Source: Promethearchaeum syntrophicum | GTDB lineage: Archaea; Asgardarchaeota; Lokiarchaeia; Sigyniarchaeales; Promethearchaeaceae | NCBI RefSeq assembly: GCF_008000775.2 | Contig: NZ_CP042905.2 | Coordinates: forward strand, 930,001 to 962,000 | Reading direction: 5' to 3' | DNA length: 32,000 bases | In this document: in pieces, positions 8,759-27,095 of the stretch | How positions within the stretch are numbered: position 1 is the stretch's first letter | How the letters are laid out: every line of letters starts with the position of its first letter | Notes under the pieces: generated by a model | Seen by the model: only the letters and a program-made list of their open reading frames with translations | Told to the model about the DNA's origin: nothing | The model's database searches: none | Translations under genes and position numbers: made by a program

Positions 8759-9994
8759 TTAAATTCCATTCGGTGAAGTGCCTATTGGTGAAGAGGAAAT
8801 ACTAAATTCAACATAATAACGACAATCTCCCGCATCCCAATAATTCCAGTAATACCATCCTTGATCAACATAGTTAAGCATATTATTTTCCCACCAATTG
8901 AATACTGGGTATTGGTCATCTGAATCGGGCCAGCTATCATCCTCCCAAGCTTCAACTCTAATTTTTAAAGGATGAGTTTTTGGAATTAATACATTAGCCA
9001 TGTTAACTTTCCAATAGATATATCCTGCACCAGAGCGACTAACTGTTCCATAAAAATTATTAACTTTATATCCTGCACCACCCCATCCATCACCTACATA
9101 CCATTTTAAATATTCTTCACCAGAACCTTTTGGCCAAGGATCGTAATCGGTTTCGTAATAGATGCCTACTAAATTAATTTTGACATAATATGCTTCACTG
9201 GGGTCCCAATCATCTGTAATCACAATTTCAGTATTACTATCGTAGTAGATGTCTGCTGGTGAAACTCCATATGCAGTGGACCAACTCCAAGAGCTGCCAT
9301 CGGGATCTAGATCAATTCCGAATAAATCCTTATAGGCTGCCCATGCTATTTCAGAACAATAATACCCATTAATACCTGATAATGGATTTGAACCACTAAT
9401 CTGCTTACATGTCCACCCCCAATCATATGCGGGTCCAATAGGATATCCGTCAATTCCCCCATTTAGTTTAGATTTCATCCAATCTACTGCTTGTTGCCGT
9501 TGTGCATTTGTTAAATATTTAACTCTTACAGCAACAGCATTATCTGCATGTTCATTTACTGCATGACCCCATACTGAATAACCTAACCCATTTCCCGCTT
9601 CATCACTTTTTGTGGAATGAATTACATAAGGGGTTCCAGTTGCCATCCATTGATGGGCATCTCTATCCCAAATATATTCACCTGCTTGAACAAATCCACA
9701 GAAAATTTCAGTATGAGAAAATTCTCCTGGAATTAAATAGTCAAATATTGTCCCAGGAGTACCTAGTAGAATTATATCCCCAGGAACCAGTCCATTGTAA
9801 GATAATTCATTTACTCCATCATCTGCAAAAGATGATCTTACATCGGTACTTATTGTTTCAAGATTGAAACTTTCCTTAGCATTAGGATCATCCTCTAAAG
9901 AAACACCATTCGAATGAGGAATGTAAATAGAGTTAGCCAAGAAAAATACAACCATAAATGTAGCGATTATTTTTGTTTTTGACATTATTTTCAC
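8759..9994 (-). CDS. Secreted or membrane-anchored permuted papain-like (YiiX/NlpC-P60-type) hydrolase with an aromatic-rich C-terminal domain
   Basis: N-terminal signal/anchor MKIMSKTKIIATFMVVFFLANSI. GDIILLG...FSHTEIF (His-first order) followed later by YYCSEIAWAAY (nucleophile Cys), as in the permuted YaeF/YiiX family. The C-terminal ~170 aa are rich in W, Y, D and G. Confidence 0.6.
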   Translation of the reverse strand: MKIMSKTKIIATFMVVFFLANSIYIPHSNGVSLEDDPNAKESFNLETISTDVRSSFADDGVNELSYNGLVPGDIILLGTPGTIFDYLIPGEFSHTEIFCGFVQAGEYIWDRDAHQWMATGTPYVIHSTKSDEAGNGLGYSVWGHAVNEHADNAVAVRVKYLTNAQRQQAVDWMKSKLNGGIDGYPIGPAYDWGWTCKQISGSNPLSGINGYYCSEIAWAAYKDLFGIDLDPDGSSWSWSTAYGVSPADIYYDSNTEIVITDDWDPSEAYYVKINLVGIYYETDYDPWPKGSGEEYLKWYVGDGWGGAGYKVNNFYGTVSRSGAGYIYWKVNMANVLIPKTHPLKIRVEAWEDDSWPDSDDQYPVFNWWENNMLNYVDQGWYYWNYWDAGDCRYYVEFSISSSPIGTSPNGI

Positions 9995-10151: not shown

Positions 10152-11156
10152 ATGACAATAATTACAGAATCGGGGAAATTCTCAGAAAATTTGTATTTAA
10201 TTGACACCGAACAATTCTTAAATAAGAGAATTACAACAGTTTTTTGTTATTGGGATGGAAAAAACTGTTATCTTATTGATATTGGCACCAGCGATAATGT
10301 TCAAACTATATTACGCTTTCTTAAAAATAATGAAATTCCCCTTCAAAAGGTAAAAGGCTTGTTCCTTAGCCACTATCATTTTGATCATGGTGGAGGTGCC
10401 ACTAAGTTATGGAAAACCATCCATAGGAAAAATAACAACTCAACATTTAAGATAATTACCACAAGGGAAACAAAAGAAAAACTCCAAAACGCAGAAAGCC
10501 ATGTAATGGGCGCAAAAACAACATTTGGTAATTTTGTGGGCGAAATGAAACCAATACCTGTGGATTTAGAAGAAAATGCGTATGAAATTATATCATTCGA
10601 TAAGGATTATGAATTATCCTCTATAGAAAAAATAACGATTCGATTGCTCTCTACTCCAGGGCATTCCAATGATCATTGTAGTCCAACAATATTTAGAAAT
10701 GGTCTTCCAATATTTTGTTTTGTTGGAGAAGCATCAGGATGTTTATATAATGGATCTGAGCTTTTATCCCAACCAACTTCCATGCCTCCCAATTTTCAGT
10801 TTGAAAAATATATGAACAGCCTCGAGAAATTAATCAACTTAAATCCCGAAAAACTTGGATTGTGCCATTTTGGAGTCATTTCAGGAAAAAATGATGTAAA
10901 AACTTATTTAAATGGGCATAAAAAATACATGATTGATTTTAGAGCTGCCGTTATCGAATTATATACTAAAAATCAAAGCACGCGTTATATTATTGAGAAT
11001 TTGAAAGAGGATTTCTTCAATGATGAAAAATTCATAGATAATTATTACAGGAAATTAAACAATCACTCTAATTTCCTCTCAAATTTACGCCTTGCTTTGA
11101 CTTATGGCATGATGATTTCGCTTGGTTTTCGAAAACCAAAGTATGAACTTAAATAA
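10152..11156 (+). CDS. Metallo-beta-lactamase fold hydrolase
   Basis: HxHxDH motif LSHYHFDHGGG, later TPGHSNDH, and a distal LCHFG His. GGTGAG lies 5 nt upstream of the ATG. Confidence 0.8.
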   Translation: MTIITESGKFSENLYLIDTEQFLNKRITTVFCYWDGKNCYLIDIGTSDNVQTILRFLKNNEIPLQKVKGLFLSHYHFDHGGGATKLWKTIHRKNNNSTFKIITTRETKEKLQNAESHVMGAKTTFGNFVGEMKPIPVDLEENAYEIISFDKDYELSSIEKITIRLLSTPGHSNDHCSPTIFRNGLPIFCFVGEASGCLYNGSELLSQPTSMPPNFQFEKYMNSLEKLINLNPEKLGLCHFGVISGKNDVKTYLNGHKKYMIDFRAAVIELYTKNQSTRYIIENLKEDFFNDEKFIDNYYRKLNNHSNFLSNLRLALTYGMMISLGFRKPKYELK

Positions 11157-11178
11157 AATTAGGTGTGCAAATGTTTTT

Positions 11179-11793
11179 TTATATAATTTTAACATTTTTC
11201 TTATCGTAAGGTGGTATTTTTAAGATCTGTTTAACTAGTTCTTTGAAAATTATATCGACATTGAATCCAGTTTTGCTTGATGTGTCATAAGATGCCTTTA
11301 CTCCTAATTCTTTTTGAAAATCTTCAAGAGTTTTTGGATCAAATTTATATTCTGGATCAATAAGGTCTAATTTAGTGCCTACCATAATTCTCGGAACATC
11401 TCCTGCATTTGATATTAACAATGGATTCCAATCTCTTTTTAAATTTTCCAAAGTAACAAATCGAGTCAGATCATGTACAATCAATGCTGCATTAGCACCA
11501 GTAATAAATTGTGGTAAAAGTGGTGTGAACCGTTCTTGTCCACCAAAATCCCAGATAGATAAACCTATTCTTATTTTTATTCCATCTTCTTCAGCGGGGA
11601 TCGAAAATGAGTTAAAAGAAAGTCCAATTGTTAGTTTTGTGTCAACATCGAATTCATTAAAACAAAATCTATTAGTTAAAGCAGTTTTACCACAACCTCC
11701 ATCCCCTAACAAAACGATTTTGAATTGATATTTAATATCCTCTTCAGAATCTTCAATATTATAAGATGAATCTTGGTTAGCGAGCTGCATCAT
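11179..11793 (-). CDS. Small GTPase of the Ras superfamily (Rab/Ras-like)
   Basis: G1 LLGDGGCGKT, switch I Thr (KLTIGLSF), G3 WDFGGQERF (DxxGQ), G4 GTKLD ([NT]KxD), G5 SSKTG. There is no C-terminal Cys prenylation motif (ends KNVKII). Confidence 0.85.
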   Translation of the reverse strand: MMQLANQDSSYNIEDSEEDIKYQFKIVLLGDGGCGKTALTNRFCFNEFDVDTKLTIGLSFNSFSIPAEEDGIKIRIGLSIWDFGGQERFTPLLPQFITGANAALIVHDLTRFVTLENLKRDWNPLLISNAGDVPRIMVGTKLDLIDPEYKFDPKTLEDFQKELGVKASYDTSSKTGFNVDIIFKELVKQILKIPPYDKKNVKII

Positions 11794-12016
11794 AAATCAG
11801 TTCAACAAGTTTTTTGAATAATAAGATTTGTTCTAATGAATTTTAAATCTATTCAAAAGGCTTCTAATTATTTTTACTAAGTAATCAAACGTTTATGATG
11901 AGTTAAGTTTGCAGTATTAGAAATTTTCCAAGAAATATTAGAAAACTTTCAAAAAAATTATTTCTTTTCTTAAAAAGAATAGAAAAAAAATTAGATTTTG
12001 AATTACAACTTAAGAA

Positions 12017-12742
12017 TTACTTACTCTTAGTTGATTTCTTAGTTGATTTCTTAGTTGTTTTCTTTGCAGCTTTCTTAGGTGTAGGTTTTGCAGCAGTTGA
12101 ACTAAGGATATCAATCGAATGTTGGTGAAACTTTAATAAAAGATCCTTATGTTTCTTTAAAACTTCCTTTAAGACTTTCTTTTCTTTTGTCTTATATTTA
12201 GCATCGACTTTTTCAAGTGCTGCTTCTTTATTTTTCACAAGGTCAAAGGATTCTCCAACCAACCTAGCGCCTTCATTCACCACTTCTTCTTGTGCTGCTA
12301 TTTTTTCTTCTACCCTTTCCTCAGCATTTTCAAGTTTCTCTAATTTAGCTTTGCCTCGTTCCAACGATTTCTTATCTTTTTCGTGGTCCTTAATTGTTTT
12401 TTCAACGTCTTTCTTCATATCTTGAAGTTCTAACCAGTCCTCTACTAATTCCTCCAATGGAACTATACAATCAGTATTTAAACTTTCAACTAATTCTTTT
12501 CTACTTGCCTCAATATTTTCCAAAGTATCTGAAAAAGGACCGGTTTCAAAATGCTCTGCATTTTTCAAATATTCAATGTATTTTTGGTTTTCTAATGAAA
12601 ATCTTTCATTATATTTACCAAAATCTTTAATTTCTTTTATCAGCTTAGTTAATTCTAAACTTGAAGTCGCTAATTTGTCTGATACTTTATTCAGACTACC
12701 TTTCATTTTATCTAAAAACGAAGTTTTCTCGCTCATAAACAA
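12017..12742 (-). CDS. Coiled-coil protein (241 aa) with BAR-domain-like helix pattern and a polybasic KK[ST]T C-terminal tail
   Basis: Three long helical segments. The central stretch CIVPLEELVEDWLELQDMKKDVEKTIKDHEKDKKSLERGKAKLEKLEN resembles the helix2-helix3 junction logic of BAR proteins (V.PL....I..i.k.I.KR.hk..DyD....k..kl). Tail is AAKPTPKKAAKKTTKKSTKKSTKSK. The CDS call is solid; the fold assignment is inference. Confidence 0.7.
   Translation of the reverse strand: MFMSEKTSFLDKMKGSLNKVSDKLATSSLELTKLIKEIKDFGKYNERFSLENQKYIEYLKNAEHFETGPFSDTLENIEASRKELVESLNTDCIVPLEELVEDWLELQDMKKDVEKTIKDHEKDKKSLERGKAKLEKLENAEERVEEKIAAQEEVVNEGARLVGESFDLVKNKEAALEKVDAKYKTKEKKVLKEVLKKHKDLLLKFHQHSIDILSSTAAKPTPKKAAKKTTKKSTKKSTKSK
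12026..12061 (-). repeat. 12-nt tandem repeat x3 inside the CDS, encoding (KKST)n
   Basis: On the plus strand, cttagttgattt appears at 12026-12037 and 12038-12049, and cttagttgtttt at 12050-12061 (one mismatch). Confidence 0.8.
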
Positions 12743-12884
12743 AATCTGCTTTTTTTACTTAAAAAAGTTATCGAATAAAATCTAATAATTATGTGAATAG
12801 AGGAAAAATCTTGAAAATAATATATAAGTTTATATACTTCGTTAAAATTAAATAATAGTTATTTTAGATTGAAGGTCATCAAAA

Positions 12885-13739
12885 ATGGAAACGAATTTAA
12901 TTCTTTTATTTATTACAGCGGCAATTAAAACTGCAGTTTTATTCTTAATAGCTTCATACCTCATTAATAAATGGGCAAAACAAAAATTAAAATATTTTAC
13001 AGATTTTCCCTTTCTAAACGCTTTAGGATTTTACATTTTTAGTTTTGGTAAACTTTTGGATATGTTTTTATATTATCACTTTATTAATACTCCCAATTTA
13101 GCGATTTTGAATGATTCTTCTGCCCTTTTGCTAGGAAGGATACGTTTTATTTTAAGTCCAATTTTGGTAGTTCTCCCATATTTTATTTTAATGCTAGTAA
13201 TTTGGTTAGAAAACAGAAAAAAAATTCAGAAAGTGCTAGGATTTGGATGGATAGTTTTAAGTATTGTTGCTGTACTCTTAGCTAAAGGATACACACAGTT
13301 TTTGTTTTTCAATTTGATTATTGCTTTCCCGGTTATTTTGCTATCAATAATTTCATTCGCAGTCATCCATCATCAGCAAAAATTACCCCAAATTAATTCT
13401 TTATTCATAACTATCGGATGGGGGGCTTATTTAATAACTCAAATTATCAGACCGTTTTGGATATCTCTTGGAAATAGTTCATGGGGATTAACTTGGGTAG
13501 GAGAATTTGTGGAATTAATCTCAATGACTATTATTGGTATAGGATTTATCAGACCTGCATCATATTTCGAGAAAAGTATTAATCAATTTTTAATAAAAAA
13601 AACTTTTGAGAATGATGATTCGATTGAAATTGATGATAGAAATGAAGTGAATGAAAAAAATAATGAGACTGAAGAACATGAGGAAATAATTGAAGTTACT
13701 CCAAAATGGAAATATGACGTAGAGTGCTATATTCCCTAA
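12885..13739 (+). CDS. Integral membrane protein (about seven predicted TM segments) with an acidic C-terminal tail
   Basis: Seven hydrophobic stretches of 17-28 aa by eye, followed by a soluble tail ENDDSIEIDDRNEVNEKNNETEEHEEIIE. No family motif recognised. Confidence 0.7.
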   Translation: METNLILLFITAAIKTAVLFLIASYLINKWAKQKLKYFTDFPFLNALGFYIFSFGKLLDMFLYYHFINTPNLAILNDSSALLLGRIRFILSPILVVLPYFILMLVIWLENRKKIQKVLGFGWIVLSIVAVLLAKGYTQFLFFNLIIAFPVILLSIISFAVIHHQQKLPQINSLFITIGWGAYLITQIIRPFWISLGNSSWGLTWVGEFVELISMTIIGIGFIRPASYFEKSINQFLIKKTFENDDSIEIDDRNEVNEKNNETEEHEEIIEVTPKWKYDVECYIP

Positions 13740-16352: not shown

Positions 16353-17180
16353 TCATTTCTTTTTGTATATTTTATAAGCAGAAATAATTTCAGGAGGGCA
16401 TCTTTTACATTTTGAGAGATGTCTCAATACAGATACTTTGGATTTTTGACAAAATGGACAAATTTCTTTGATATTCTCGCCAGTACCAACTTTTTTTATT
16501 TTATCGATGACTTCCGCTTCAAAATCAATAGAAGATACTTCTTCGCTTTCTTCTGATTTGTCTTCTTTTTCATCAAAATCCTCTATTTCTTCTTCAAACT
16601 CTTCATCTTCTTCGTCTTCTTCATCTGATTCTTTCAAAGGTCCATGTTTTTTACCAAGTCCTTCCTCACTTTCGTCTTCATAATCAATAACTTCTTTCTC
16701 TTCTTTTTCGTGCCCGATGATTAATTCTTCTTCATCTTCTTCAGTTACTTTCTCAATTTCGAAATCATCATCATCATCATCGTCATCTTCAACTTTTTTC
16801 TTTGATTTCTTCTTAGATTTTTTCTTTTTGACAATAATTTCCTCTTCATCTTCTAATTCATCTTCTTCTTCTTCTTCTAAATCCATTACGAAATCATCAT
16901 CAGAATATTCTAGATCATTTTCATCAAATTGAAAATCTTTCGCTTCCGTTGCAACATACATTTCTTTATGAGTTAATTGAGAAGAATTTTCAACATAGAG
17001 TGAACATATTTGGCATATTACATTATATGGACTTAAATTAAATTTTCTTGCAGTACAATAACAGAGAGGTTTTCTAGCGTTTGAAATTTCGTCGATATTC
17101 TTTAAATGTTTACAAGCAATCGTTCTTATTGTTTTTTTTGCTTTTGTGGTTTTTTTCTTTTTTGCCATATCTTTAGCCAA
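16353..17180 (-). CDS. Extremely acidic protein with Cys clusters (zinc-ribbon-like) at both ends and a KKKKTTKAKK N-terminus
   Basis: N-terminal CKH...CYC...CQIC. C-terminal CPFCQ...CKRCP (CxxC-x15-CxxC). The central ~130 aa are mostly D/E, including a D8 run. Confidence 0.65.
   Translation of the reverse strand: MAKDMAKKKKTTKAKKTIRTIACKHLKNIDEISNARKPLCYCTARKFNLSPYNVICQICSLYVENSSQLTHKEMYVATEAKDFQFDENDLEYSDDDFVMDLEEEEEDELEDEEEIIVKKKKSKKKSKKKVEDDDDDDDDFEIEKVTEEDEEELIIGHEKEEKEVIDYEDESEEGLGKKHGPLKESDEEDEEDEEFEEEIEDFDEKEDKSEESEEVSSIDFEAEVIDKIKKVGTGENIKEICPFCQKSKVSVLRHLSKCKRCPPEIISAYKIYKKK
16764..16787 (-). repeat. Trinucleotide repeat (ATC)6-GTC-ATC on the plus strand, encoding poly-Asp (D8)
   Basis: Direct reading of 16764-16787; this is the DDDDDDDD run in the acidic protein. 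Confidence 0.85.
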
Positions 17181-17238
17181 TCTCTTTTTTCAGTATTAAT
17201 GTTATTTTTAATATTTCATTAAAAAAAAAATTTTTGGT

Positions 17239-18015
17239 TTAGGAAATATCAAGAAGTTTTAGCATTCTCTTAATAGGAATTCCAAAAGTTGCTAAGTACA
17301 TAGTTTTGCCCTTATCTTGATCTGAAATTACATTTTTTTCTCTAAGATTTATAGTTTTTTCCTTTACATGTTCCAAAAAACCTCTCCATTCTTGACGAAA
17401 AATCATATATTCATCTCGAGTTAGATATTGAAAAGAATTAAGAATTTCAAATTGAGATTGTAGATTTCCTTGATCATCATAAACCAACTCTCCTTTCTTG
17501 TTTCTCAAAAATTGCATCATTTCTCTTAATTCTAAAACCGTATCTTGAGATAATCCTGATTCAGAATCATTTTTCATTTTTTTAGCAAAATCCACTAGTA
17601 TTTGGAGATTATTTTGATTAATTTCGCTCATTATTCTTTCAATATTAATAATTTTTACAAGTTGTTTTTCTGAGAGTTCTTTTGTAAAATCTATGGAATT
17701 TTCAAGCTCTCTTATTCTTTCTTCATAATCTTCAGCTAAATGATAAATAAAATTCCCCTTTTTATCACGTGTTGTTGGTTCTGAAATAATTCCTCTTTCT
17801 TGTAAATCTTGCAAGTGAATATTGACAGTAGATTTACTTTTCCCTAGTAATTTTTCCAATTCTTGACTGCTTAGTTTTCCATACATCTCTAAATAGCTAT
17901 AAATCCGAAATTTTGGTTTTATCAGTAAAATTTCTAAATTCGTTAAGTTCTCTTTTTTCCTCTTATGTTTAGATTTTTCTATTTTCTTTATTTTTTGATC
18001 GTACATTTTTATCAC
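17239..18015 (-). CDS. Winged helix-turn-helix transcriptional regulator (ArsR/MarR-like N-terminal domain) with a helical C-terminal domain
   Basis: RIYSYLEMYGKLSSQELEKLLGKSKSTVNIHLQDLQERGII is a canonical wHTH recognition segment. It sits 58 nt upstream of the acidic Zn-ribbon gene on the same strand. Confidence 0.7.
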   Translation of the reverse strand: MIKMYDQKIKKIEKSKHKRKKENLTNLEILLIKPKFRIYSYLEMYGKLSSQELEKLLGKSKSTVNIHLQDLQERGIISEPTTRDKKGNFIYHLAEDYEERIRELENSIDFTKELSEKQLVKIINIERIMSEINQNNLQILVDFAKKMKNDSESGLSQDTVLELREMMQFLRNKKGELVYDDQGNLQSQFEILNSFQYLTRDEYMIFRQEWRGFLEHVKEKTINLREKNVISDQDKGKTMYLATFGIPIKRMLKLLDIS

Positions 18016-18333
18016 TAATTTAAAATTTTAATCCTATTTTTCTATAAAAAATGCAATCATTTAAATACTTGGGTTTTTTATATTTATTTGGATTCGATTT
18101 TTCTAAATAAATTCGAATTGTTCTTCGAATAAAATTGGAATAATCGAATAAAAACCCTCGGTGAAAAGAAATGAAAAATATATCAAAATCCGCTATTATT
18201 GAAGATAATTTCCAATTTTCTCTGCAGAATGTCCAAATGAATATCATTGAAAAATATTATCATGAATTAGTCAGGAGTAAATCTTTTTTTTAATATTAAT
18301 GAGCAATTATAAACCATCATAAAGTGAAAAATT

Positions 18334-19416
18334 ATGGAAAAATCAATTAAAGAAACAATATCATATGAAAGTTCAACCATAGAAAGAATGATTTCTCTTT
18401 GTAAACAAATCAAAAATGGAGAAAATAAAATAAAAATAAAAGAGGAACTTGATGCGTTATTAGAAAGTCCGGATTACAAAATAGAATTTGCCCGTTATAA
18501 TGGACGAGTGTCAAAAGAAGATTTTAGAGATTATTTATTGAATTTTTTCTCATTAAATCCAGAAGAAATTCAAAATGAAGACTTAAAAGTGCGATATGAA
18601 CATTTCAAATATTTCTTTGATAATATAGAATTATATATCTCAAATATAGATAAAATTCATGAGATCTTTTCAATCACAACTCTTGAAGAACAGAAAAAAA
18701 TAGCTCAAATTGGCCTTCCTGAAGACCTTGAATTAGGTAATATCACTTTCTTATTTACTATCGGTGTTGGAATGTCATTTGGATGGCCATATTGTGATGA
18801 AAAACTAGGAAACTTTATTCATTTCGATTTCATTCAACTTTTTAAACAATTCTCAATTGAAGAAATTCATTCATTCATTGCTCATGAAATTCATCACATA
18901 GGTGTAAACCAATTACACGATAAAATAGATACCGCATCTATCTCGCTTGAACAGTTATTCTATCTATTGTTTTCAGGAGAGGGATTAGCAGTAAAATATT
19001 GTAATAATGCAGAAGGGATTCTTTCCAAACGATTCAATTCAGATATAACTCCTAACCTCGGCTTAGATCCATTTTCATGGGAATATCTTAACAATGATTT
19101 TCAAAATACATTTAAAGCATTTAAGGAACATTTAGAACAAATAAGAAGCGGAGAAATTTCAAATCAAGAAGAGCTTATGGGATTATTTCATAAATATTGG
19201 ATGAATGCACATACAGACGAACAAGATCGCTCAGATTCTCCTCAGCTCAAACAATCGCGTTTCTATAGTTTTGGAAATGAATTATGGGGCACAATCCAAG
19301 ATGTGTTTGGAAAATCAAAGGTGTATTGGTTATTTGATCATCTATCAGATTTTGCACATACTTTCAATGAAGCTCTTGAAATATCTGGAAAATCTGAATA
19401 TAAAATTCCTTTATAA
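18334..19416 (+). CDS. HExxH-motif protein, putative zinc metallopeptidase
   Basis: FIAHEIHHIGV (HExxH) with GEGLAVKY 33 residues downstream. The remainder is not recognised. Confidence 0.55.
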   Translation: MEKSIKETISYESSTIERMISLCKQIKNGENKIKIKEELDALLESPDYKIEFARYNGRVSKEDFRDYLLNFFSLNPEEIQNEDLKVRYEHFKYFFDNIELYISNIDKIHEIFSITTLEEQKKIAQIGLPEDLELGNITFLFTIGVGMSFGWPYCDEKLGNFIHFDFIQLFKQFSIEEIHSFIAHEIHHIGVNQLHDKIDTASISLEQLFYLLFSGEGLAVKYCNNAEGILSKRFNSDITPNLGLDPFSWEYLNNDFQNTFKAFKEHLEQIRSGEISNQEELMGLFHKYWMNAHTDEQDRSDSPQLKQSRFYSFGNELWGTIQDVFGKSKVYWLFDHLSDFAHTFNEALEISGKSEYKIPL

Positions 19417-19474
19417 TATTTTTTTTAAATCGAATAATTTTTTTGTTTTTATATTATTATATCTTTGAGATTTT

Positions 19475-20380
19475 ATGACTTCATTATTCTATAGTGAACC
19501 CGTTTTCAGACCACCATCGGAAGGAAACTCTCTTCTCCTTACTGTTTCTATCGGATGCAGCTTTAATTGCACATTTTGCTACCCTTATAAACATAAGAAA
19601 TTTTCTATCAGAGATATCGAAGATATAAAGCGAGATATTGATATATCAAAAAAAATTTATGGAGATTCGATAAGGAAAATTTTCCTCTTAGATGGAAATG
19701 CATTTGCTTTAGCACCTGAGAAATTAATCGAAATTTCAAATTATTGTTATAAACAACACAAAAACCTCAAAAGAGTAAGTGCATATGCTCATGCAAACGA
19801 TATTATAAGTAAATCAGATGAAGATTTATTGAGAATTGCAAAATCTGGGCTTAAAATGGTTTATTTGGGGATTGAAACGGGAGATAATGCTCTACTTAAA
19901 ACAATTAATAAGAAAACTTCTGCAGAAAATCTAACTAAAGCAGCTTATAAATTACACAATTCAGGAATAATCTTGTCTGGAACTATTATTTTAGGATTAG
20001 CAGGGAATATACCAGATTTAAGTAAAAAACATGCAATTTTAACTGCAAAACTGATAAATCAGATGAATCCGATAAGAAACCAGTTATGGTATATATCGGC
20101 TTTAAGTTTAATGATTCCCCCAGAAACCATTATAAAACAACAGGTTGAAAATGGAATTTTTACTCCTTTAAATCAGAAAGATACTTTGAAGGAATTAAAA
20201 TTCTTATTAGAGAATATTTCTGATGACCTTCATGGTTGTATTTTTCGTTCAAATCATGCTTCAAATTATTTAGCTTTAAAAGGTGTATTGGCCAACGATA
20301 AATATGATCTGATTGAAAAAGTAAAATATGGGTTGGATCATCCCGAATCTTTACGGCCTGAATATTATCGAGGGCTTTAG
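19475..20380 (+). CDS. Radical SAM enzyme
   Basis: CxxxCxxC cluster motif GCSFNCTFCY after RPPSEGNSLLLTVS. GIETGD and SNHASNY motifs. No C-terminal SPASM-like Cys cluster is visible. Confidence 0.85.
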   Translation: MTSLFYSEPVFRPPSEGNSLLLTVSIGCSFNCTFCYPYKHKKFSIRDIEDIKRDIDISKKIYGDSIRKIFLLDGNAFALAPEKLIEISNYCYKQHKNLKRVSAYAHANDIISKSDEDLLRIAKSGLKMVYLGIETGDNALLKTINKKTSAENLTKAAYKLHNSGIILSGTIILGLAGNIPDLSKKHAILTAKLINQMNPIRNQLWYISALSLMIPPETIIKQQVENGIFTPLNQKDTLKELKFLLENISDDLHGCIFRSNHASNYLALKGVLANDKYDLIEKVKYGLDHPESLRPEYYRGL

Positions 20381-20482
20381 AAATCGATGAAATAATTATT
20401 GATTACAGCTACGACCTATAATCTAGAATTCCAAACAAATATTAATTATATACTCACCCATTATATATAAGAAGGTTAAACT

Positions 20483-21565
20483 ATGGAAAAACAATTTTTA
20501 GACTATTTAGATTCTGAAAAAAAGATCATAAATAGTTCCGTTCAAAATTATTTTCAACAGGCAATTCAACTTGAAGAAGAACCGTTTTTACGAGAGTTTC
20601 TTTCATTCGGGCAATATTTTATAGTTCAGGGAGGACGCAGATTACTTCCCATCTCTTTGAAAAATACATTCATGGGTTTAAGCTCAGAAAAAGATATTTT
20701 GGAATATTCTGAGGCAATTTATAACGTTAGTATTTCAATTGAGATGTTACATGTATCTAATTTGATGATTGATGACTTAATTGATAAAGAAGAATATCGC
20801 CGTGGGAATAAGACTTTTCATCGCTTTATAGGAGATAAAATGACCCATCTTAATCAGGTAGATTTGGAAGAATATGCAATTTCTTCGACTATATACGGCG
20901 CTAATATTATATCATTAATGGGATCGCAAATAATTAAAAATTCAAAATTTGATTCTATTAGGAAAGAAAAAGCTCTTGTGTTATATCTAAATGGAATGTT
21001 AGGAATGAGTCGAGCTCATCTTCTTGAAGAATATTATAAACAAGTTCCATTAGAGAAAATTAATCTTGAAAATTATCTTATTTTGGCGGATAAAAGAGCT
21101 AAACAGATGGAAACAGCTGTTGGATTAGGGGCTGTTTTTGGAAATGCGCGAAAATCCCAAATGGGGCCATTAATGCAAGCTATGAATAAAATCGGAATCA
21201 TATCTCAAGTGGTCAATGACATTGATGGAAGTTTTGGAAAAAAAGTGGACAAAAAATCCCTAGATTCTGACATAAAAAGTGGCCAAAGTACTATCCTAAC
21301 AGTGGTTGCATACCAAAGTGCCGATAAAAAGCAAAAAAAAATACTCAATAGTGTATTAGGTAATAGGAATGCAACATCTGAAGAAATTAACTCTGTTAGA
21401 GAAATTTTTCAAGAAACAGAAGCGGTTAATTTCGCAACAATATATTCCAATAATCTCAAAAATGATGTTTACCGAAATTTACAACGAGTTTATCCAGGAT
21501 TTCGAAAAGAAATCATGAATTTTTATTCTCAACTTTTAGGATATATAACTGATTATAAAGATTGA
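20483..21565 (+). CDS. trans-Polyprenyl diphosphate synthase family with a degenerate second Asp-rich motif
   Basis: First Asp-rich motif MIDDLIDKEEYRRG (DDxxD..RRG) is intact. Where QxxDDxxD is expected the sequence is QVVNDIDG. Downstream GKKVDKKSLDSDIKSGQSTI matches the GK...D...GK.T region. Confidence 0.8.
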   Translation: MEKQFLDYLDSEKKIINSSVQNYFQQAIQLEEEPFLREFLSFGQYFIVQGGRRLLPISLKNTFMGLSSEKDILEYSEAIYNVSISIEMLHVSNLMIDDLIDKEEYRRGNKTFHRFIGDKMTHLNQVDLEEYAISSTIYGANIISLMGSQIIKNSKFDSIRKEKALVLYLNGMLGMSRAHLLEEYYKQVPLEKINLENYLILADKRAKQMETAVGLGAVFGNARKSQMGPLMQAMNKIGIISQVVNDIDGSFGKKVDKKSLDSDIKSGQSTILTVVAYQSADKKQKKILNSVLGNRNATSEEINSVREIFQETEAVNFATIYSNNLKNDVYRNLQRVYPGFRKEIMNFYSQLLGYITDYKD

Positions 21566-22332
21566 GGAGAATTGAAAGAACATTTGGTAGGTTGAGAAAG
21601 ATTAGCTCTGATAAAATAAAGAAAAAAAATCATTTGGCATTTGAAAATCAAATAATTAAAAGAAATTATTATTTATTGAAACATCACTTATTATTCCTAT
21701 TGGATTCTGGTCTTGATTTTCTGAAAAGAGAATACGTTAAGCGAAATAGTGAGACATCTTTTATGGAGTTTACTTCCCAGAATTATTACGATTTTATTTT
21801 GAAAGATTATATTCGTAAGAAAATAAAAAACCAAATAAATTCCATTTTAAATTCTGGTTTATTGTGTATTAAGCACATGGTTGATGATACAGTTGATCCT
21901 GATTTTTTAGATCAACTTATTAATAAAAATTACCCAGAATATGAATCAAATGATCTAAGTTTGTTGCATTCTTCAAATAACCATCCTGGATTTTCAGAAT
22001 TAAAAACAATTAGCCAACTTACATTTAGGATTGCAATTATCCAGACTGCTTATATTCTTTCATGTCAAGATCTTGAAATAAAAACTTATCTTCAATTAAT
22101 GAAGAAAGTTTTTCCCACGAAAAAAGATAGTCAAGAAGCACTAAATTCAATATTTTCAATGTTTAATCAAATGGTGGATTGCTTTGAAAGGCACTTACAG
22201 ATGATTACAATACCTTTTTATAAACCAACATTCAATATAAGGGATTTTCAATTCGTTCGGATATGTTATGAATACGCAATTAAGATAGTTGATGAACAAT
22301 TAAATGAATTATATCCGGAGGAAGAATTATGA
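21562..22332 (+). CDS. Hypothetical helical protein (256 aa), translationally coupled to the polyprenyl synthetase; contains DDTVD
   Basis: The TTG start overlaps the upstream TGA (aTTGAgg). The first in-frame ATG is 65 codons in. The only DDxxD-type motif is HMVDDTVDPDF. No family recognised. Confidence 0.5.
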   Translation: MRRIERTFGRLRKISSDKIKKKNHLAFENQIIKRNYYLLKHHLLFLLDSGLDFLKREYVKRNSETSFMEFTSQNYYDFILKDYIRKKIKNQINSILNSGLLCIKHMVDDTVDPDFLDQLINKNYPEYESNDLSLLHSSNNHPGFSELKTISQLTFRIAIIQTAYILSCQDLEIKTYLQLMKKVFPTKKDSQEALNSIFSMFNQMVDCFERHLQMITIPFYKPTFNIRDFQFVRICYEYAIKIVDEQLNELYPEEEL

Positions 22333-23120
22333 AGAAAAATTCAATGCAGAAAATTAAACCCGAAATTAGGACTTCACTAAAAAGTTTAGGTTTTACTGAT
22401 TATAATATAAATATCTACTTAGCACTTCTTAATTCTGGAGAAATGAATGCTCATGAATTATCTAAGAAAACTGGAGTACCTTACTCAAGAATTTACGAAG
22501 TATTAAACGAAATGACAAATAATCAAAAATTATTAACAAAAATCGATGGACGCCCCTCAACCTTTGTTGCAAATAATCCAAAAGAGATTTTTAAATCAAT
22601 TAAACAAAAGAAAGATGATGAATTTGAAGAGAACATGAAAATGTCGCTTCCGTATCTTAATAATCTTTACGGGGATCACAATTTAGCTAAACAGATGTCT
22701 TTTACGGTTTTCGAAGGTGCAAAATCTTGTAGAGATCATGTAAGAAATGTCTTAAACTTCACGGTAAAAAATTTATCATTTTCATTGAAAGAAATTGATG
22801 AGGTTTATAGTGCAATTAAGGTTAATTTCGATTTCTTAAAACGAATCGGCTGCAAAGTACGAATTATTCTTGAGGAACGATTTCGAAATTCAGAAATTTA
22901 TGAAGAAGTAAAAAAAAATTGTGAAATAAGATTTGTTCCAATAATTCATGAAACTCTCTTAATTTCTGATGAAAAAACGGCGATTATGGCAATAAAATCA
23001 AATTTCAATATACTAAAACCTTCAGAAATTTCATTTACAATAATTTCCTCTTCTGATTTAATGTTTGTGACTTTTGTATCTGAAATTTTCAATCGAAATT
23101 GGAAAATTTCAAAAGAATAG
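22329..23120 (+). CDS. TrmB-family transcriptional regulator
   Basis: N-terminal LGFTDYNINIYLALLNSGEMNAHELSKKTGVPYSRIYEVLNEM is the TrmB wHTH signature. The start ATG overlaps the upstream stop (ATGA at 22329-22332). Confidence 0.8.
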   Translation: MKKNSMQKIKPEIRTSLKSLGFTDYNINIYLALLNSGEMNAHELSKKTGVPYSRIYEVLNEMTNNQKLLTKIDGRPSTFVANNPKEIFKSIKQKKDDEFEENMKMSLPYLNNLYGDHNLAKQMSFTVFEGAKSCRDHVRNVLNFTVKNLSFSLKEIDEVYSAIKVNFDFLKRIGCKVRIILEERFRNSEIYEEVKKNCEIRFVPIIHETLLISDEKTAIMAIKSNFNILKPSEISFTIISSSDLMFVTFVSEIFNRNWKISKE

Positions 23121-24347: not shown

Positions 24348-27095
24348 CTAAAGAATTATTTCTCCTTGCTTGGAGAAACTTTTAATTTCCCCAAATGGGT
24401 TTGTATAAGTTACATTTAACAAGAATTTCTGTAATTCGTAGCGTTTTTGGAGGTCGATATTCTTATCTTTGATTTTAGAAATTCGAAAAACCCATTTAAT
24501 AACGCGAATTGCTTCAGGTTCAAATTCTCGAATAAAAATCTCGGTAGGATCACTATTTTCTTTTTGGTATTGTAAGAATTCAGGATGAATAAAAATCATT
24601 CCGATATCCGATATGAAAAACTTAGTTGGGTTGTATACTCTCAGAGAAAATATTAATTTGGTTCCTATAATTTCAACTTTTCTGAAAAATGATAATAATC
24701 TCTCTTCCATAGGTTTTTGCGGTTGAATTAAAAGATCATCTTCAATTTCTGCTATTATCGTTTGGTTTTGAATTAGTATTATTAATTTTTCTTTAAGTTC
24801 TTTTGTTGTAAGGGATAATATTTTTCCTAAATGTTCAATAGAAATCGGGTTAATATATTTAAGATATTCTTTTATTTCTTCAGTAAAAATAGTCTTATCA
24901 ATTTCGTTTTTAAAACTAAAAATTTTTTCCAAAAGATTGTCTTTAACTTGCGTCCAATTATTTAGATATTTCCTAATTTCATTGGCGGATGTTATTGGTA
25001 TATTAATTTTATCAATGTTCTCATAATTACGATTAATTTCTCTATTATTATCTTCAATAGAGCTATATAAATTATTAATTGTTAATTGAATTAAATTTCG
25101 CGCTTCTTTAAATCTACGAACTTGGATTTCCTTTTTAATAGGTTCAGAAATCTTATCAAATCTCTCCAAAACATCTCGTTGACTTGAAATTGCCTGAATA
25201 ATTATATTCTGCAGATTAGTGCTCAAAAATTCATAAGTAATTTTCTTTTTAAGGGGGGATATTTCATGAGAAACTTCTTTCGTCGTTTCTTGAAAAACAC
25301 TAAACTTATGAAAAACGTTAGCAAGGTATTGTTGTATTTCTATTTTAATATCGATCCAAGTGACTGTAATCTCTTTTAAAAATTCTTTGAATTCCAAATT
25401 ATTTAACCAGGTTTGACCGATATCAAACTCAAGCTTAAATAATTTTTCGCGAATGCTTGAGATATTATTTAAAAATTCCTCTGTTCTTTTAATATCTTCA
25501 TCATCCATTTTTTCTTCAAGAAGAACTTCCATTTTTTTAATAGATTCGTATTCGGTCTTTACTACATCAATTCGATCCTTTAATTCAGAAAGAAGAATAT
25601 CTAATTCTTTAATGTAGTCTGCTCGTCCATCGCAAATTAAGTTATATATTGATGAATTTACATCCGAGATATTTTCAAGTATTTCTTCCTTTATATCTAT
25701 AAAATCTTGAATTACCTCAACATTAAATCTCTTAAATTCTGATTCGTGTAGTATCTTCTCAAATTCATCCAATTTTTCTGCTATTCGATTTCCTTCTTCT
25801 TCTAAAAATATTTCAGATTGGATGAATTTCTTTTGATTAACATAAGATTCTGCTTTTTTTCGTAAATTTTGGGTTTGTTTTTGAAATAAATCTAAATTAG
25901 AATAAAATTTTTTACTTTTTAGAGCAATTTCTTCAATTTCTTTATCAATATCATTAAAAATGTTATTTATTTTTTGTAGAGAAGACTCAATTTCATCTAA
26001 AACATCTAAATCTTCTTCATTTTGCTGCCAATTCTTTAAATTTATCGCTGTCCAGACACAAATTGACTTAATATGTAATACATAGGAAAGATCACCAAGT
26101 AAACTAATAATTTTTTTTCTTTGTCGCCAATCATCAGGATCTAAACTTTGAAATATTATAAAAATTTCTTCTTCGAAACCATCTGGTTTTTCCATATAAA
26201 TTTTCAATAAGCAATTGGTTATCAAATTCCTAATGGGAATCTTTGGAACAACCAGTTGTCCAATCATAATTGGTAACATTTCTTTCATATTTTGAAGCGT
26301 GATATATATTAATGTTTCAGAGATTCCTTGGCCAATATCATCACTAAAATCATTAATAAATGGTTTGAAAAATTCTAGAAGAGCAGGTCCATGATTCATG
26401 CCAATTTTCACAAAAGAATCAATTGTTTTTGTTTGAATTATCATGATTTCATCAGAAAACATCAAAACCAGATTCTGAAAAAGTTTATAAATTTCATCAA
26501 AGAAATAATCTCCAATTTCTCCAATAATCCAAATAATTTTTTCTCTAATCATCCAATCTACATCTTCTAATAGAGGAGATAAAAGTGCATGAATTTTGAA
26601 AGAATCCAAATGAAAACAGAGAGCTTTCAATACTTCAGCTGATAAACCCCGAACTTCTTCATCTGGGTCTCTTAGCAAAATAATCACATTTTCTTTTAAA
26701 ATATCAATCATTTCATTTGGAGGGTCTGATTCTGGTGTTAAAAAGGATAGTACCATTTCCAAAGCCCGTGCTCTCACTGTCCATGAATCATCTTCAAGAG
26801 TTCGACTAAAAGTAAAATAAAGTTCTGGATATTGTATGAAAGAGTTTTTTAAAATAGATCCTACAAGTAAAACCGCGGATTCTCTTACGTTTTTATCAGA
26901 ATCAAAGAGTCTTGCTTCAATTTTTTCTATCAAAACATCAAAATCCTTAGGATGAATTAGATAAAGTTTCTTTAATATTTGAAGCGATTCTTGTCGGATC
27001 CAATATTCAGAATGATCTAATAAGGTATTTATCTTTTCTAAAGTTAAGAGGGCTGTGTGGTCTGATTTATCACTAATATTATTTAAAATTCCCAA
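24348..27095 (-). CDS. Large HEAT-repeat protein: N-terminal HEAT/ARM solenoid, ~350-aa coiled-coil/helical region, winged-helix-like segment, C-terminal beta-rich domain
   Basis: PBS-lyase-type HEAT repeats: DSDKNVRESAVLLVG, DDSWTVRARALEMV, DPDEEVRGLSAEVL, DVDWMIREKIIWIIG, DPDDWRQRKKIISLLG. Then a long E/K/I/L-rich helical region, followed by HLGKILSLTTKELKEKLIILIQNQTIIAEIEDD (wH-like). The last ~130 aa show alternating beta patterns (LIFSLRVYNPTKFFISDIGMIFIHP...). The listed start is TTG at 27095; see the finding on the upstream extension. Confidence 0.8.
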   Translation of the reverse strand: MGILNNISDKSDHTALLTLEKINTLLDHSEYWIRQESLQILKKLYLIHPKDFDVLIEKIEARLFDSDKNVRESAVLLVGSILKNSFIQYPELYFTFSRTLEDDSWTVRARALEMVLSFLTPESDPPNEMIDILKENVIILLRDPDEEVRGLSAEVLKALCFHLDSFKIHALLSPLLEDVDWMIREKIIWIIGEIGDYFFDEIYKLFQNLVLMFSDEIMIIQTKTIDSFVKIGMNHGPALLEFFKPFINDFSDDIGQGISETLIYITLQNMKEMLPIMIGQLVVPKIPIRNLITNCLLKIYMEKPDGFEEEIFIIFQSLDPDDWRQRKKIISLLGDLSYVLHIKSICVWTAINLKNWQQNEEDLDVLDEIESSLQKINNIFNDIDKEIEEIALKSKKFYSNLDLFQKQTQNLRKKAESYVNQKKFIQSEIFLEEEGNRIAEKLDEFEKILHESEFKRFNVEVIQDFIDIKEEILENISDVNSSIYNLICDGRADYIKELDILLSELKDRIDVVKTEYESIKKMEVLLEEKMDDEDIKRTEEFLNNISSIREKLFKLEFDIGQTWLNNLEFKEFLKEITVTWIDIKIEIQQYLANVFHKFSVFQETTKEVSHEISPLKKKITYEFLSTNLQNIIIQAISSQRDVLERFDKISEPIKKEIQVRRFKEARNLIQLTINNLYSSIEDNNREINRNYENIDKINIPITSANEIRKYLNNWTQVKDNLLEKIFSFKNEIDKTIFTEEIKEYLKYINPISIEHLGKILSLTTKELKEKLIILIQNQTIIAEIEDDLLIQPQKPMEERLLSFFRKVEIIGTKLIFSLRVYNPTKFFISDIGMIFIHPEFLQYQKENSDPTEIFIREFEPEAIRVIKWVFRISKIKDKNIDLQKRYELQKFLLNVTYTNPFGEIKSFSKQGEIIL

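Follow-up and report, generated by a model that had tools for sequence, protein, structure and literature searches.

A predicted CIBAR-like BAR-domain protein lies beside an autonomous Rab cassette in the Asgard archaeon Promethearchaeum syntrophicum MK-D1

BAR domains are core membrane-shaping tools of eukaryotes, and their occurrence in Asgard archaea bears on the origin of the eukaryotic endomembrane system. Promethearchaeum syntrophicum MK-D1 (Lokiarchaeia) is one of the few cultured members of the Asgard archaea and makes protrusions, blebs and vesicles. We analysed a 32,000-nucleotide stretch of its genome (contig NZ_CP042905.2, positions 930,001 to 962,000 of the forward strand; GC ~30%), referred to here as the window, which carries a gene for a 239-aa helical protein and, next to it, a gene for a 204-aa small GTPase. 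An initial annotation, made from the letters alone, had likened the helical protein to BAR/amphiphysin-type domains and had put the pair forward as a candidate prokaryotic membrane-remodelling module. Profile searches and structure prediction pointed to a BAR domain with affinity to the CIBAR family, and comparison of related loci placed the arrival of the GTPase gene beside it within the Promethearchaeum lineage.

Two minus-strand genes were present as first described, with one correction to their extent. One open reading frame (ORF) spans 11179-11793 (204 aa); the other, 12017-12742, has 241 aa when counted from a TTG codon. For the latter, the ATG at 12736 is a more likely start than the TTG at 12742 and yields 239 rather than 241 aa; the product of the gene so defined (12017..12736, minus strand) was 100% identical over 239 aa to the deposited protein DSAG12_01423, which is encoded on a contig of 4.32 Mb. 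The two genes are separated by a 223-bp spacer (11794..12016, minus strand). It contains a T8 run (11983..11990), 27 nt past the stop codon of the 239-aa gene, and a weak 7-bp AT-rich hairpin (11962-11979). Both had been picked out initially; the T-run is conserved in relatives and is likely an archaeal oligo-T terminator, whereas the hairpin is not conserved. A scan for terminators of the bacterial type found none and an Rfam search of 10900-13000 gave no match. At the far end of the pair, an A7 run (11174..11180, minus strand) overlaps the stop codon of the GTPase gene.

The structure of the 239-aa protein was predicted with AlphaFold2 (AF2) from an alignment of close homologues, with a predicted local distance difference test score (pLDDT) of 81.7 overall and ~90 in the core. 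The model consists of a short helix (residues 7-20), three long helices at residues 22-58, 66-137 and 143-213 (37, 72 and 71 residues, respectively; 12098..12673, minus strand) and a disordered tail, so that the three long helices anticipated from the sequence reappeared in the prediction. When the monomer was compared with the PDB using Foldseek, all of the top-50 matches were BAR-superfamily domains, among them amphiphysin, BIN, endophilin, SNX1/5, APPL, FAM92A, F-BAR and I-BAR. The best template modelling (TM) scores were 0.64/0.70 (SNX1-SNX5) and 0.62/0.69 (FAM92A).

Profile comparisons led to the same superfamily. Close homologues (60-77% identity) were confined to Promethearchaeum-like genomes and metagenomes. 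A profile of 17 Promethearchaeum-family sequences (hereafter Loki-only), searched with HMMER against 1.84 billion representative proteins, found 28 representatives, most of them full-length at 200-230 aa and with E-values down to 5e-26. We then assembled an alignment of 28 sequences (A2), made up of 24 of these representatives, all distant, together with 3 close members of the family and the window protein. Pfam matches within A2 were to FAM92 (16 sequences), BAR_3 (13), BAR (11), IMD (4), Arfaptin (3) and Vps5 (2), with none for the window protein itself, and one distant relative (P0021) scored above the curated cut-offs for BAR_3, FAM92 and IMD. The Loki-only and distant-only profiles aligned over 206 columns in hhalign (99.8% probability, E=2.3e-28). 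The distant-only profile, searched against the PDB, matched the crystal structures of CIBAR1/FAM92A over their full length (E=4.1e-21), as well as amphiphysin (1.9e-6) and endophilin (2.9e-5); with the window protein in the profile, the CIBAR1/FAM92A match stood at E=1.3e-21. Predicted structure, fold search and this two-step chain to solved BAR domains together uphold the original BAR call and mark the protein as a bona fide, stand-alone BAR-domain protein of the classical type, with FAM92/CIBAR its closest family among solved structures. Since the window protein was itself unmatched by the FAM92/CIBAR model (PF06730) at E<=0.1 while 16/28 A2 sequences matched, we call it CIBAR-like and not a CIBAR orthologue.

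Residue roles reported for CIBAR1 (PMC12269497) were mapped onto the window protein through a hidden Markov model (HMM) alignment, which supplied residue-level hypotheses for dimerisation and lipid binding. The 'PL junction' singled out initially corresponds to P93-L94 in helix 2, aligned with CIBAR1 P167-L168, and P93 is invariant in 28 family members. At the helix-1 interface positions of CIBAR1, 8/10 residues are hydrophobic or aromatic/His in the window protein, and 7/9 of the helix-3 zipper positions are hydrophobic or His, among them H204, which aligns with CIBAR1 H264. All three basic positions of the distal-tip cluster are kept (CIBAR1 R201/R203/R205, here R127/K129/K131); basic region 4 keeps two of three and basic region 3 none of three.

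The two ends of the protein lie outside this three-helix core. The N-terminal helix (residues 7-20; 12677..12718, minus strand), a possible N-BAR-like H0, was modelled with low confidence (pLDDT <50 for residues 11-24) and is only moderately amphipathic (hydrophobic moment ~0.45-0.50); an SFxxKMK motif is conserved within the family. The polybasic tail noticed initially extends over residues 214-239 (12020..12097, minus strand). It is Lys/Thr/Ser-rich, of the KKxTKK type, carries a net charge of +11 and is disordered, with pLDDT <50 for residues 225-239. Polybasic tails (+8 to +16) occur in 11/16 other family members and are absent from the five members of ~212 aa.

The neighbouring gene (11179..11793, minus strand) encodes a member of the Ras superfamily, as had been recognised from its motifs. 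Pfam Ras matched at E=2.3e-31, the best solved relatives were Ypt6/Rab6, Thorarchaeota Rab and Rab11 (E ~1e-25 to 1e-23), and the NCBI name is 'Rab family GTPase'. The statement that G1-G5 are intact held for G1 (GDGGCGKT), G2 (TIGLSF), G3 (WDFGGQERF) and G5 (TSSKTG), which are canonical, and needs a minor correction for G4, which reads TKLD instead of NKxD; this TKxD form is conserved across the orthogroup. The lack of a lipidation Cys was borne out, both in the window protein, which ends in ...PPYDKKNVKII, and in 45 orthologues examined, none of which has a Cys in its last 6 residues. By its sequence, then, the protein belongs to the Rab family, would lack a lipid anchor and is part of an orthogroup with members throughout Lokiarchaeia. 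At the C-terminus, the motif PPYxK(K/R)N(I/V)x(I/L)(I/L) (window 11179-11214) is kept across the orthogroup at identities down to ~53%; it takes the place of the prenylation Cys and may serve in docking or in targeting the protein to membranes. Thorarchaeota Rab (PDB 7ezb), which the window GTPase matched at E=6.9e-24 alongside Rab6/Ypt6 and Rab11, is likewise not expected to be prenylated, and the same applies to the orthologues examined. The window orthogroup differs from it in the TKxD form of G4 and in the C-terminal motif.

The Rab gene proved to be part of a self-contained unit. Across the loci compared, it is co-directional with the BAR gene in five (gaps of ~220-670 bp) and convergent with it in four (gaps of 38-44 bp), and ~200 bp upstream of the Rab ATG are homologous in both arrangements. 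The shared upstream region, which occupies the spacer in the window as the putative Rab promoter region, comprises a distal T-run, a TTCTAAT...TTCTAAT element and a start-codon-proximal stretch. The element itself, GTTTTCTAATATTTCTTGGAAAATTTCTAATAC (11914..11946, minus strand), carries two direct copies of TTCTAAT and is followed ~55 nt downstream by an inverted ATTAGAA copy (~11846-11875), an arrangement also found in locus L001. It is a candidate regulatory site upstream of the Rab gene, and the repeat may be a transcription-factor site.

Because the upstream region travels with the Rab gene, the T8 run ends whichever gene lies upstream, the BAR gene in the window and the metallo-beta-lactamase (MBL) gene in L001. 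A script check found the Rab cassette bounded, in every locus examined, by a T6-9 run on its upstream side and by an A6-10 run that overlaps the stop codon of the Rab gene. The two runs form a homopolymer inverted repeat around the cassette (window 11174-11990; likewise in L001, L002, L004, L006, L010 and L011). An inverted-repeat search around the cassette that excluded homopolymer runs, these being script-checked separately, gave weak AT-rich matches only, at chance level. The flanking repeat could provide oligo-T terminators for both neighbours and perhaps also microhomology for inversion. A neighbour-joining tree built from concatenated proteins did not separate the two Rab orientations but interleaved them, which implies that the cassette has inverted no fewer than two or three times. 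The unit of T-run, ~200-bp upstream region, Rab gene and A-run is thus autonomous and has been inverted in place among close relatives. The caveat first attached to the T8 run and hairpin, that the two genes may be separate transcription units, gains support from the T-run and from the Rab gene's own conserved upstream region in the spacer.

We then considered how far the adjacency of the two genes is conserved. It was present in all nine Promethearchaeum-like loci (the window, L001-L006, L010 and L011) and, among the loci examined, was not found beyond Promethearchaeum-like genomes. A related-locus search with close alignment retrieved two Promethearchaeum metagenome-assembled genomes (MAGs) only. 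The whole neighbourhood, including a 284-aa membrane protein, a pyrophosphatase, an aminotransferase and an MBL hydrolase, is collinear among these relatives, so the conserved pair says little, and the nine loci count as one evolutionary event.

Outside this group the two genes lie apart. Rab identity is at least 77% within the genus and 57-64% in a next tier of sequences, which keep the C-terminal motif and are probably orthologous to the window Rab, judging by sequence. Included in this tier are four other Lokiarchaeial genera (L012-L015), namely those of Ca. Lokiarchaeum ossiferum (NEF87_003777), of Harpocratesius and of two further MAGs. All four genomes share the order hyp275, radical SAM, polyprenyl synthase, hyp256 and TrmB, which then faces a convergently oriented Rab gene preceded by a DRG-type GTPase gene, with no BAR gene nearby. 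This DRG-type GTPase carries MMR_HSR1_Xtn/TGS. By comparison with these four genera, the block is intact in the window (16353..23120) and lacks the Rab gene, an AIR-synthase-like gene standing directly after TrmB. The MK-D1 Rab gene itself lies ~11 kb from its TrmB block. In L. ossiferum, the BAR homologue (NEF87_003839) is ~62 locus tags away from the Rab gene, and the BAR homologues outside the genus (L007, L008, L009, L016 and L017) had no GTPase neighbour.

The pair also failed as an operon, given the 223-bp gap with its T8 run and conserved Rab upstream region and the convergent arrangement in 4/9 loci. A rearrangement in the Promethearchaeum lineage brought the two genes together, and synteny describes the pair better than an operon or an obligate module would. 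The proposed prokaryotic BAR-GTPase membrane-remodelling module is therefore not supported, with the Rab cassette autonomous, its likely orthologues beside TrmB and distant BAR proteins lacking a GTPase neighbour, and conservation of the gene pair ends at the genus. This removes a tempting over-interpretation, as the adjacency of BAR and Rab is a young rearrangement and not an ancestral module.

As a whole, the locus is probably best explained by a CIBAR-like stand-alone BAR protein next to an independent Rab, with their adjacency derived. Several observations weigh against this explanation. Scanned directly, the 239-aa protein had no match in Pfam at E<=0.1 and no BAR match in NCBIfam, which gave just coiled-coil noise (EnvC and Rad50, E=0.003-0.012, far under the curated cut-offs). 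PDB sequence searches with the protein alone or with the Loki-only profile found nothing significant, the best non-significant matches being the BAR region of ASAP3 (E=0.036/0.18, of which 0.036 was the top phmmer match) and the Nsp1 coiled coil (0.026). Membership of the BAR superfamily consequently rests on a transitive, though strong, chain. The monomer reached no better than E=5e-4 in Foldseek, a modest value, and matches among long three-helix bundles can be non-specific in such searches. The mappable lipid-binding basic positions of CIBAR1 are kept at 7/15 overall and at 2/5 in the central basic patch, and the BAR core (residues 1-213) has a net charge of -6, so that a membrane-binding concave face cannot be taken for granted. 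The Lys-rich tail could bind nucleic acid equally well. Lastly, the adjacency persists in all nine loci despite repeated inversion, which could reflect selection keeping the two genes together.

That last point bears on an explanation in which the BAR dimer would act as a membrane adaptor or effector for the neighbouring unlipidated Rab, by analogy with CiBAR1/FAM92A and RSG1. CIBAR1 belongs to the closest solved BAR family, and CiBAR1 directly binds RSG1 and recruits it to liposomes containing phosphatidylinositol 4,5-bisphosphate (PI(4,5)P2) (PMC12219219; PMC12383261). The window Rab has no Cys anchor, its conserved C-terminal motif is a possible docking peptide, and the genes have stayed adjacent in all nine loci even though the cassette flipped several times. 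Against this, the genes form separate transcription units, divided by a T-run and by the upstream region of the Rab gene, and their orientation is convergent in 4/9 loci. The adjacency is derived and genus-restricted; in four other genera the probable Rab orthologue adjoins TrmB, and BAR homologues elsewhere lack a GTPase neighbour. Given the collinearity of the neighbourhood in close relatives, conservation of the pair tells little. Small GTPases, moreover, account for ~2% of Lokiarchaeum genes (92-109 of 5381; PMC4917890), so that any gene would be expected to have one as an immediate neighbour in ~4% of cases. In FAM92A, RSG1 docks on a C-terminal helix that is not part of the BAR domain (PMC12219219); at that position the window protein has a disordered basic tail. 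We consider such a partnership unlikely. An interaction between the two proteins remains a lead, since CiBAR1 binds a non-lipidated RSG1 and the window Rab is likewise unanchored. In its most specific form, with the Promethearchaeum BAR dimer anchoring or serving the adjacent Rab through the PPYxKKNVxII motif or the convex face of the BAR domain as an archaeal counterpart of CiBAR1-RSG1, the idea is a little more doubtful still. If true, it would mean that combining a BAR adaptor with an unprenylated Rab is an ancient means of bringing small GTPases to curved membranes, and that selection favoured both the move of the Rab gene to the side of the BAR gene and its staying there.

The charged tail and the coiled-coil matches raise a further alternative, in which the protein would be a generic coiled-coil nucleoid protein, an SMC/Rad50-like segment with a histone-H1-like Lys-rich tail that binds DNA. 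Its UniRef name ('Chromosome partition p...'), the weak EnvC/Rad50 matches far under cut-offs and the +11 KKxTKK tail on an acidic core would suit such a role. The full-length profile homology is to BAR families, however, and the top-50 fold matches are all to BAR domains; the five ~212-aa members without a tail show that the tail does not define the family, the protein has no SMC head or hinge, and the neighbourhood holds no chromosome-biology genes. We regard this as very unlikely. A PspA/ESCRT-III-type or other non-BAR helical membrane-remodelling protein, as might be supposed from the all-helical, charged sequence of the right size and from the presence of ESCRT-III in Asgard archaea, is hardly credible, as neither the window protein nor any of the 28 A2 sequences matched Snf7, PspA or Vipp1 (Pfam/NCBIfam) and no ESCRT-III structure was among the top-50 Foldseek matches. 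The initial annotation had named PspA/ESCRT-III and SMC-like families as ones that profile searches might hit if the BAR reading were wrong; profiles led to FAM92, BAR_3 and BAR instead, and both candidates were rejected for want of a supporting match.

Under the favoured explanation, a CIBAR-like BAR protein independent of the Rab, two copies of the protein would pair in antiparallel fashion into a curved homodimer, with helices 1 and 3 in contact through their hydrophobic faces. The dimer would bind the anionic archaeal membrane via its conserved distal-tip basic clusters (R127/K129/K131, K109 and K120), aided by the +11 disordered tail and possibly by the short N-terminal helix. The protein may sense or stabilise curvature at, for example, the protrusions (80-100 nm), the chains of blebs or the vesicles (50-280 nm) that MK-D1 produces (PMC7015854). 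The Rab gene would be expressed from its own promoter.

Indirect support for a dimeric working unit comes from the hydrophobic pattern kept at the interface positions (8/10 and 7/9) and from the existence of single-chain tandem BAR-BAR relatives. Two such proteins of ~450 aa were found, P0026 in Ca. Lokiarchaeum ossiferum (NEF87_003839, L009:5001-6356) and P0020 in a Prometheoarchaeum bin (L017:4773-6143). In P0026, full-length BAR domains span residues 1-221 and 237-447 (E=7e-69 and 7e-59, respectively, against the family HMM). Its AF2 model had a pLDDT of 83 and a predicted TM-score (pTM) of 0.71, and one unit superposed on FAM92A with a TM-score of 0.87 and a root-mean-square deviation of 3.3 A. 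Whole-chain Foldseek searches of the tandem model gave meaningless long-helix matches (TM ~0.2); the informative ones were the single-domain matches to FAM92A and endophilin. These proteins may be covalent pseudo-dimers, and we know of no earlier description of a tandem-BAR architecture. Elsewhere, two adjacent BAR-like ORFs (P0025, 221 aa, and a following ORF of 166 aa; L008:5001-6210) lie on an archaeal-looking contig with a Cdc6/Orc1 gene nearby, which suggests a possible heterodimeric BAR pair.

Among known systems, the BAR domain of FAM92A/CIBAR1 (a eukaryotic classical BAR; PDB 9uhd and 8ceg) is the best solved relative by profile. The two share the three-helix fold (TM 0.62/0.69 for the window model and 0.87 for the BAR unit of a relative) and the Pro-Leu of helix 2. 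Also common to both are the hydrophobic pattern at what is the dimer interface in CIBAR1, a His (H264/H204) and the basic cluster of the distal tip. Unlike CIBAR1, the window protein lacks a Pfam BAR match, has mostly lost the central basic patch, has a net acidic core, and carries a disordered polybasic tail in place of the RSG1-binding C-terminal helix; its host is an archaeon without cilia. In the GTPase-binding BAR proteins (arfaptin-Arf/Rac, APPL-Rab5 and CiBAR1-RSG1) the shared concept is a BAR dimer with docked small GTPases, and models of this kind were matched within A2 (Arfaptin 3/28; BAR_3, which covers APPL, 13/28). In contrast to those systems, the pairing of BAR and Rab here is a gene adjacency, which is recent and not operonic. 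BdpA of Shewanella offers a prokaryotic comparison; it has a BAR-like domain, is implicated in shaping membrane extensions, and is bacterial and secreted or periplasmic.

To a specialist the finding would come as no surprise. BAR proteins have been noted in genomic surveys of Lokiarchaea since 2015, and a later account credits Spang 2015 with a 'putative BAR domain protein' in Lokiarchaeum (PMC4917890). Eme 2023 reported a sparsely distributed Asgard 'Vps5-BAR', often fused to Vps28 in Thorarchaeia (PMC10307638). The protein described here resembles these earlier-reported Asgard proteins in belonging to the BAR superfamily and in its sparse distribution, and differs from Vps5-BAR in the family that its relatives match (Vps5 in 2/28 A2 sequences versus FAM92 in 16/28) and in having no Vps28 fusion. 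UniRef already lists the L. ossiferum relative P0026 as a 'BAR domain-containing protein', whereas for the MK-D1 protein the annotation is hypothetical or 'chromosome partition'. What is new is thus a previously unannotated BAR protein of MK-D1, missed by Pfam, with a specific CIBAR-like affinity. In the literature searched, no experimental work on any Asgard BAR protein was found, nor anything connecting FAM92/CIBAR with archaea.

Other genes near the pair merit brief description. Divergent from the BAR gene in every Promethearchaeum-like locus is a gene for a 284-aa multi-pass membrane protein without a Pfam family (window 12885-13739, plus strand), and in L007 a membrane protein with two transmembrane segments (2TM) is encoded directly upstream of the BAR homologue. 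A 411-aa protein (window 8759-9994, minus strand) combines a hydrophobic N-terminal segment with an unusual C-terminal region rich in Trp, Tyr and Asp, and has a marginal permuted-papain match (C92, YaeF/YiiX; 25.5 bits against a cut-off of 27). Further along, a 915-aa HEAT-repeat protein (window 24348-27095, minus strand) showed weak matches to PDS5 (E=1.9e-9) and Cnd1, which are eukaryotic cohesin/condensin regulators, and may be eukaryotic-signature-like.

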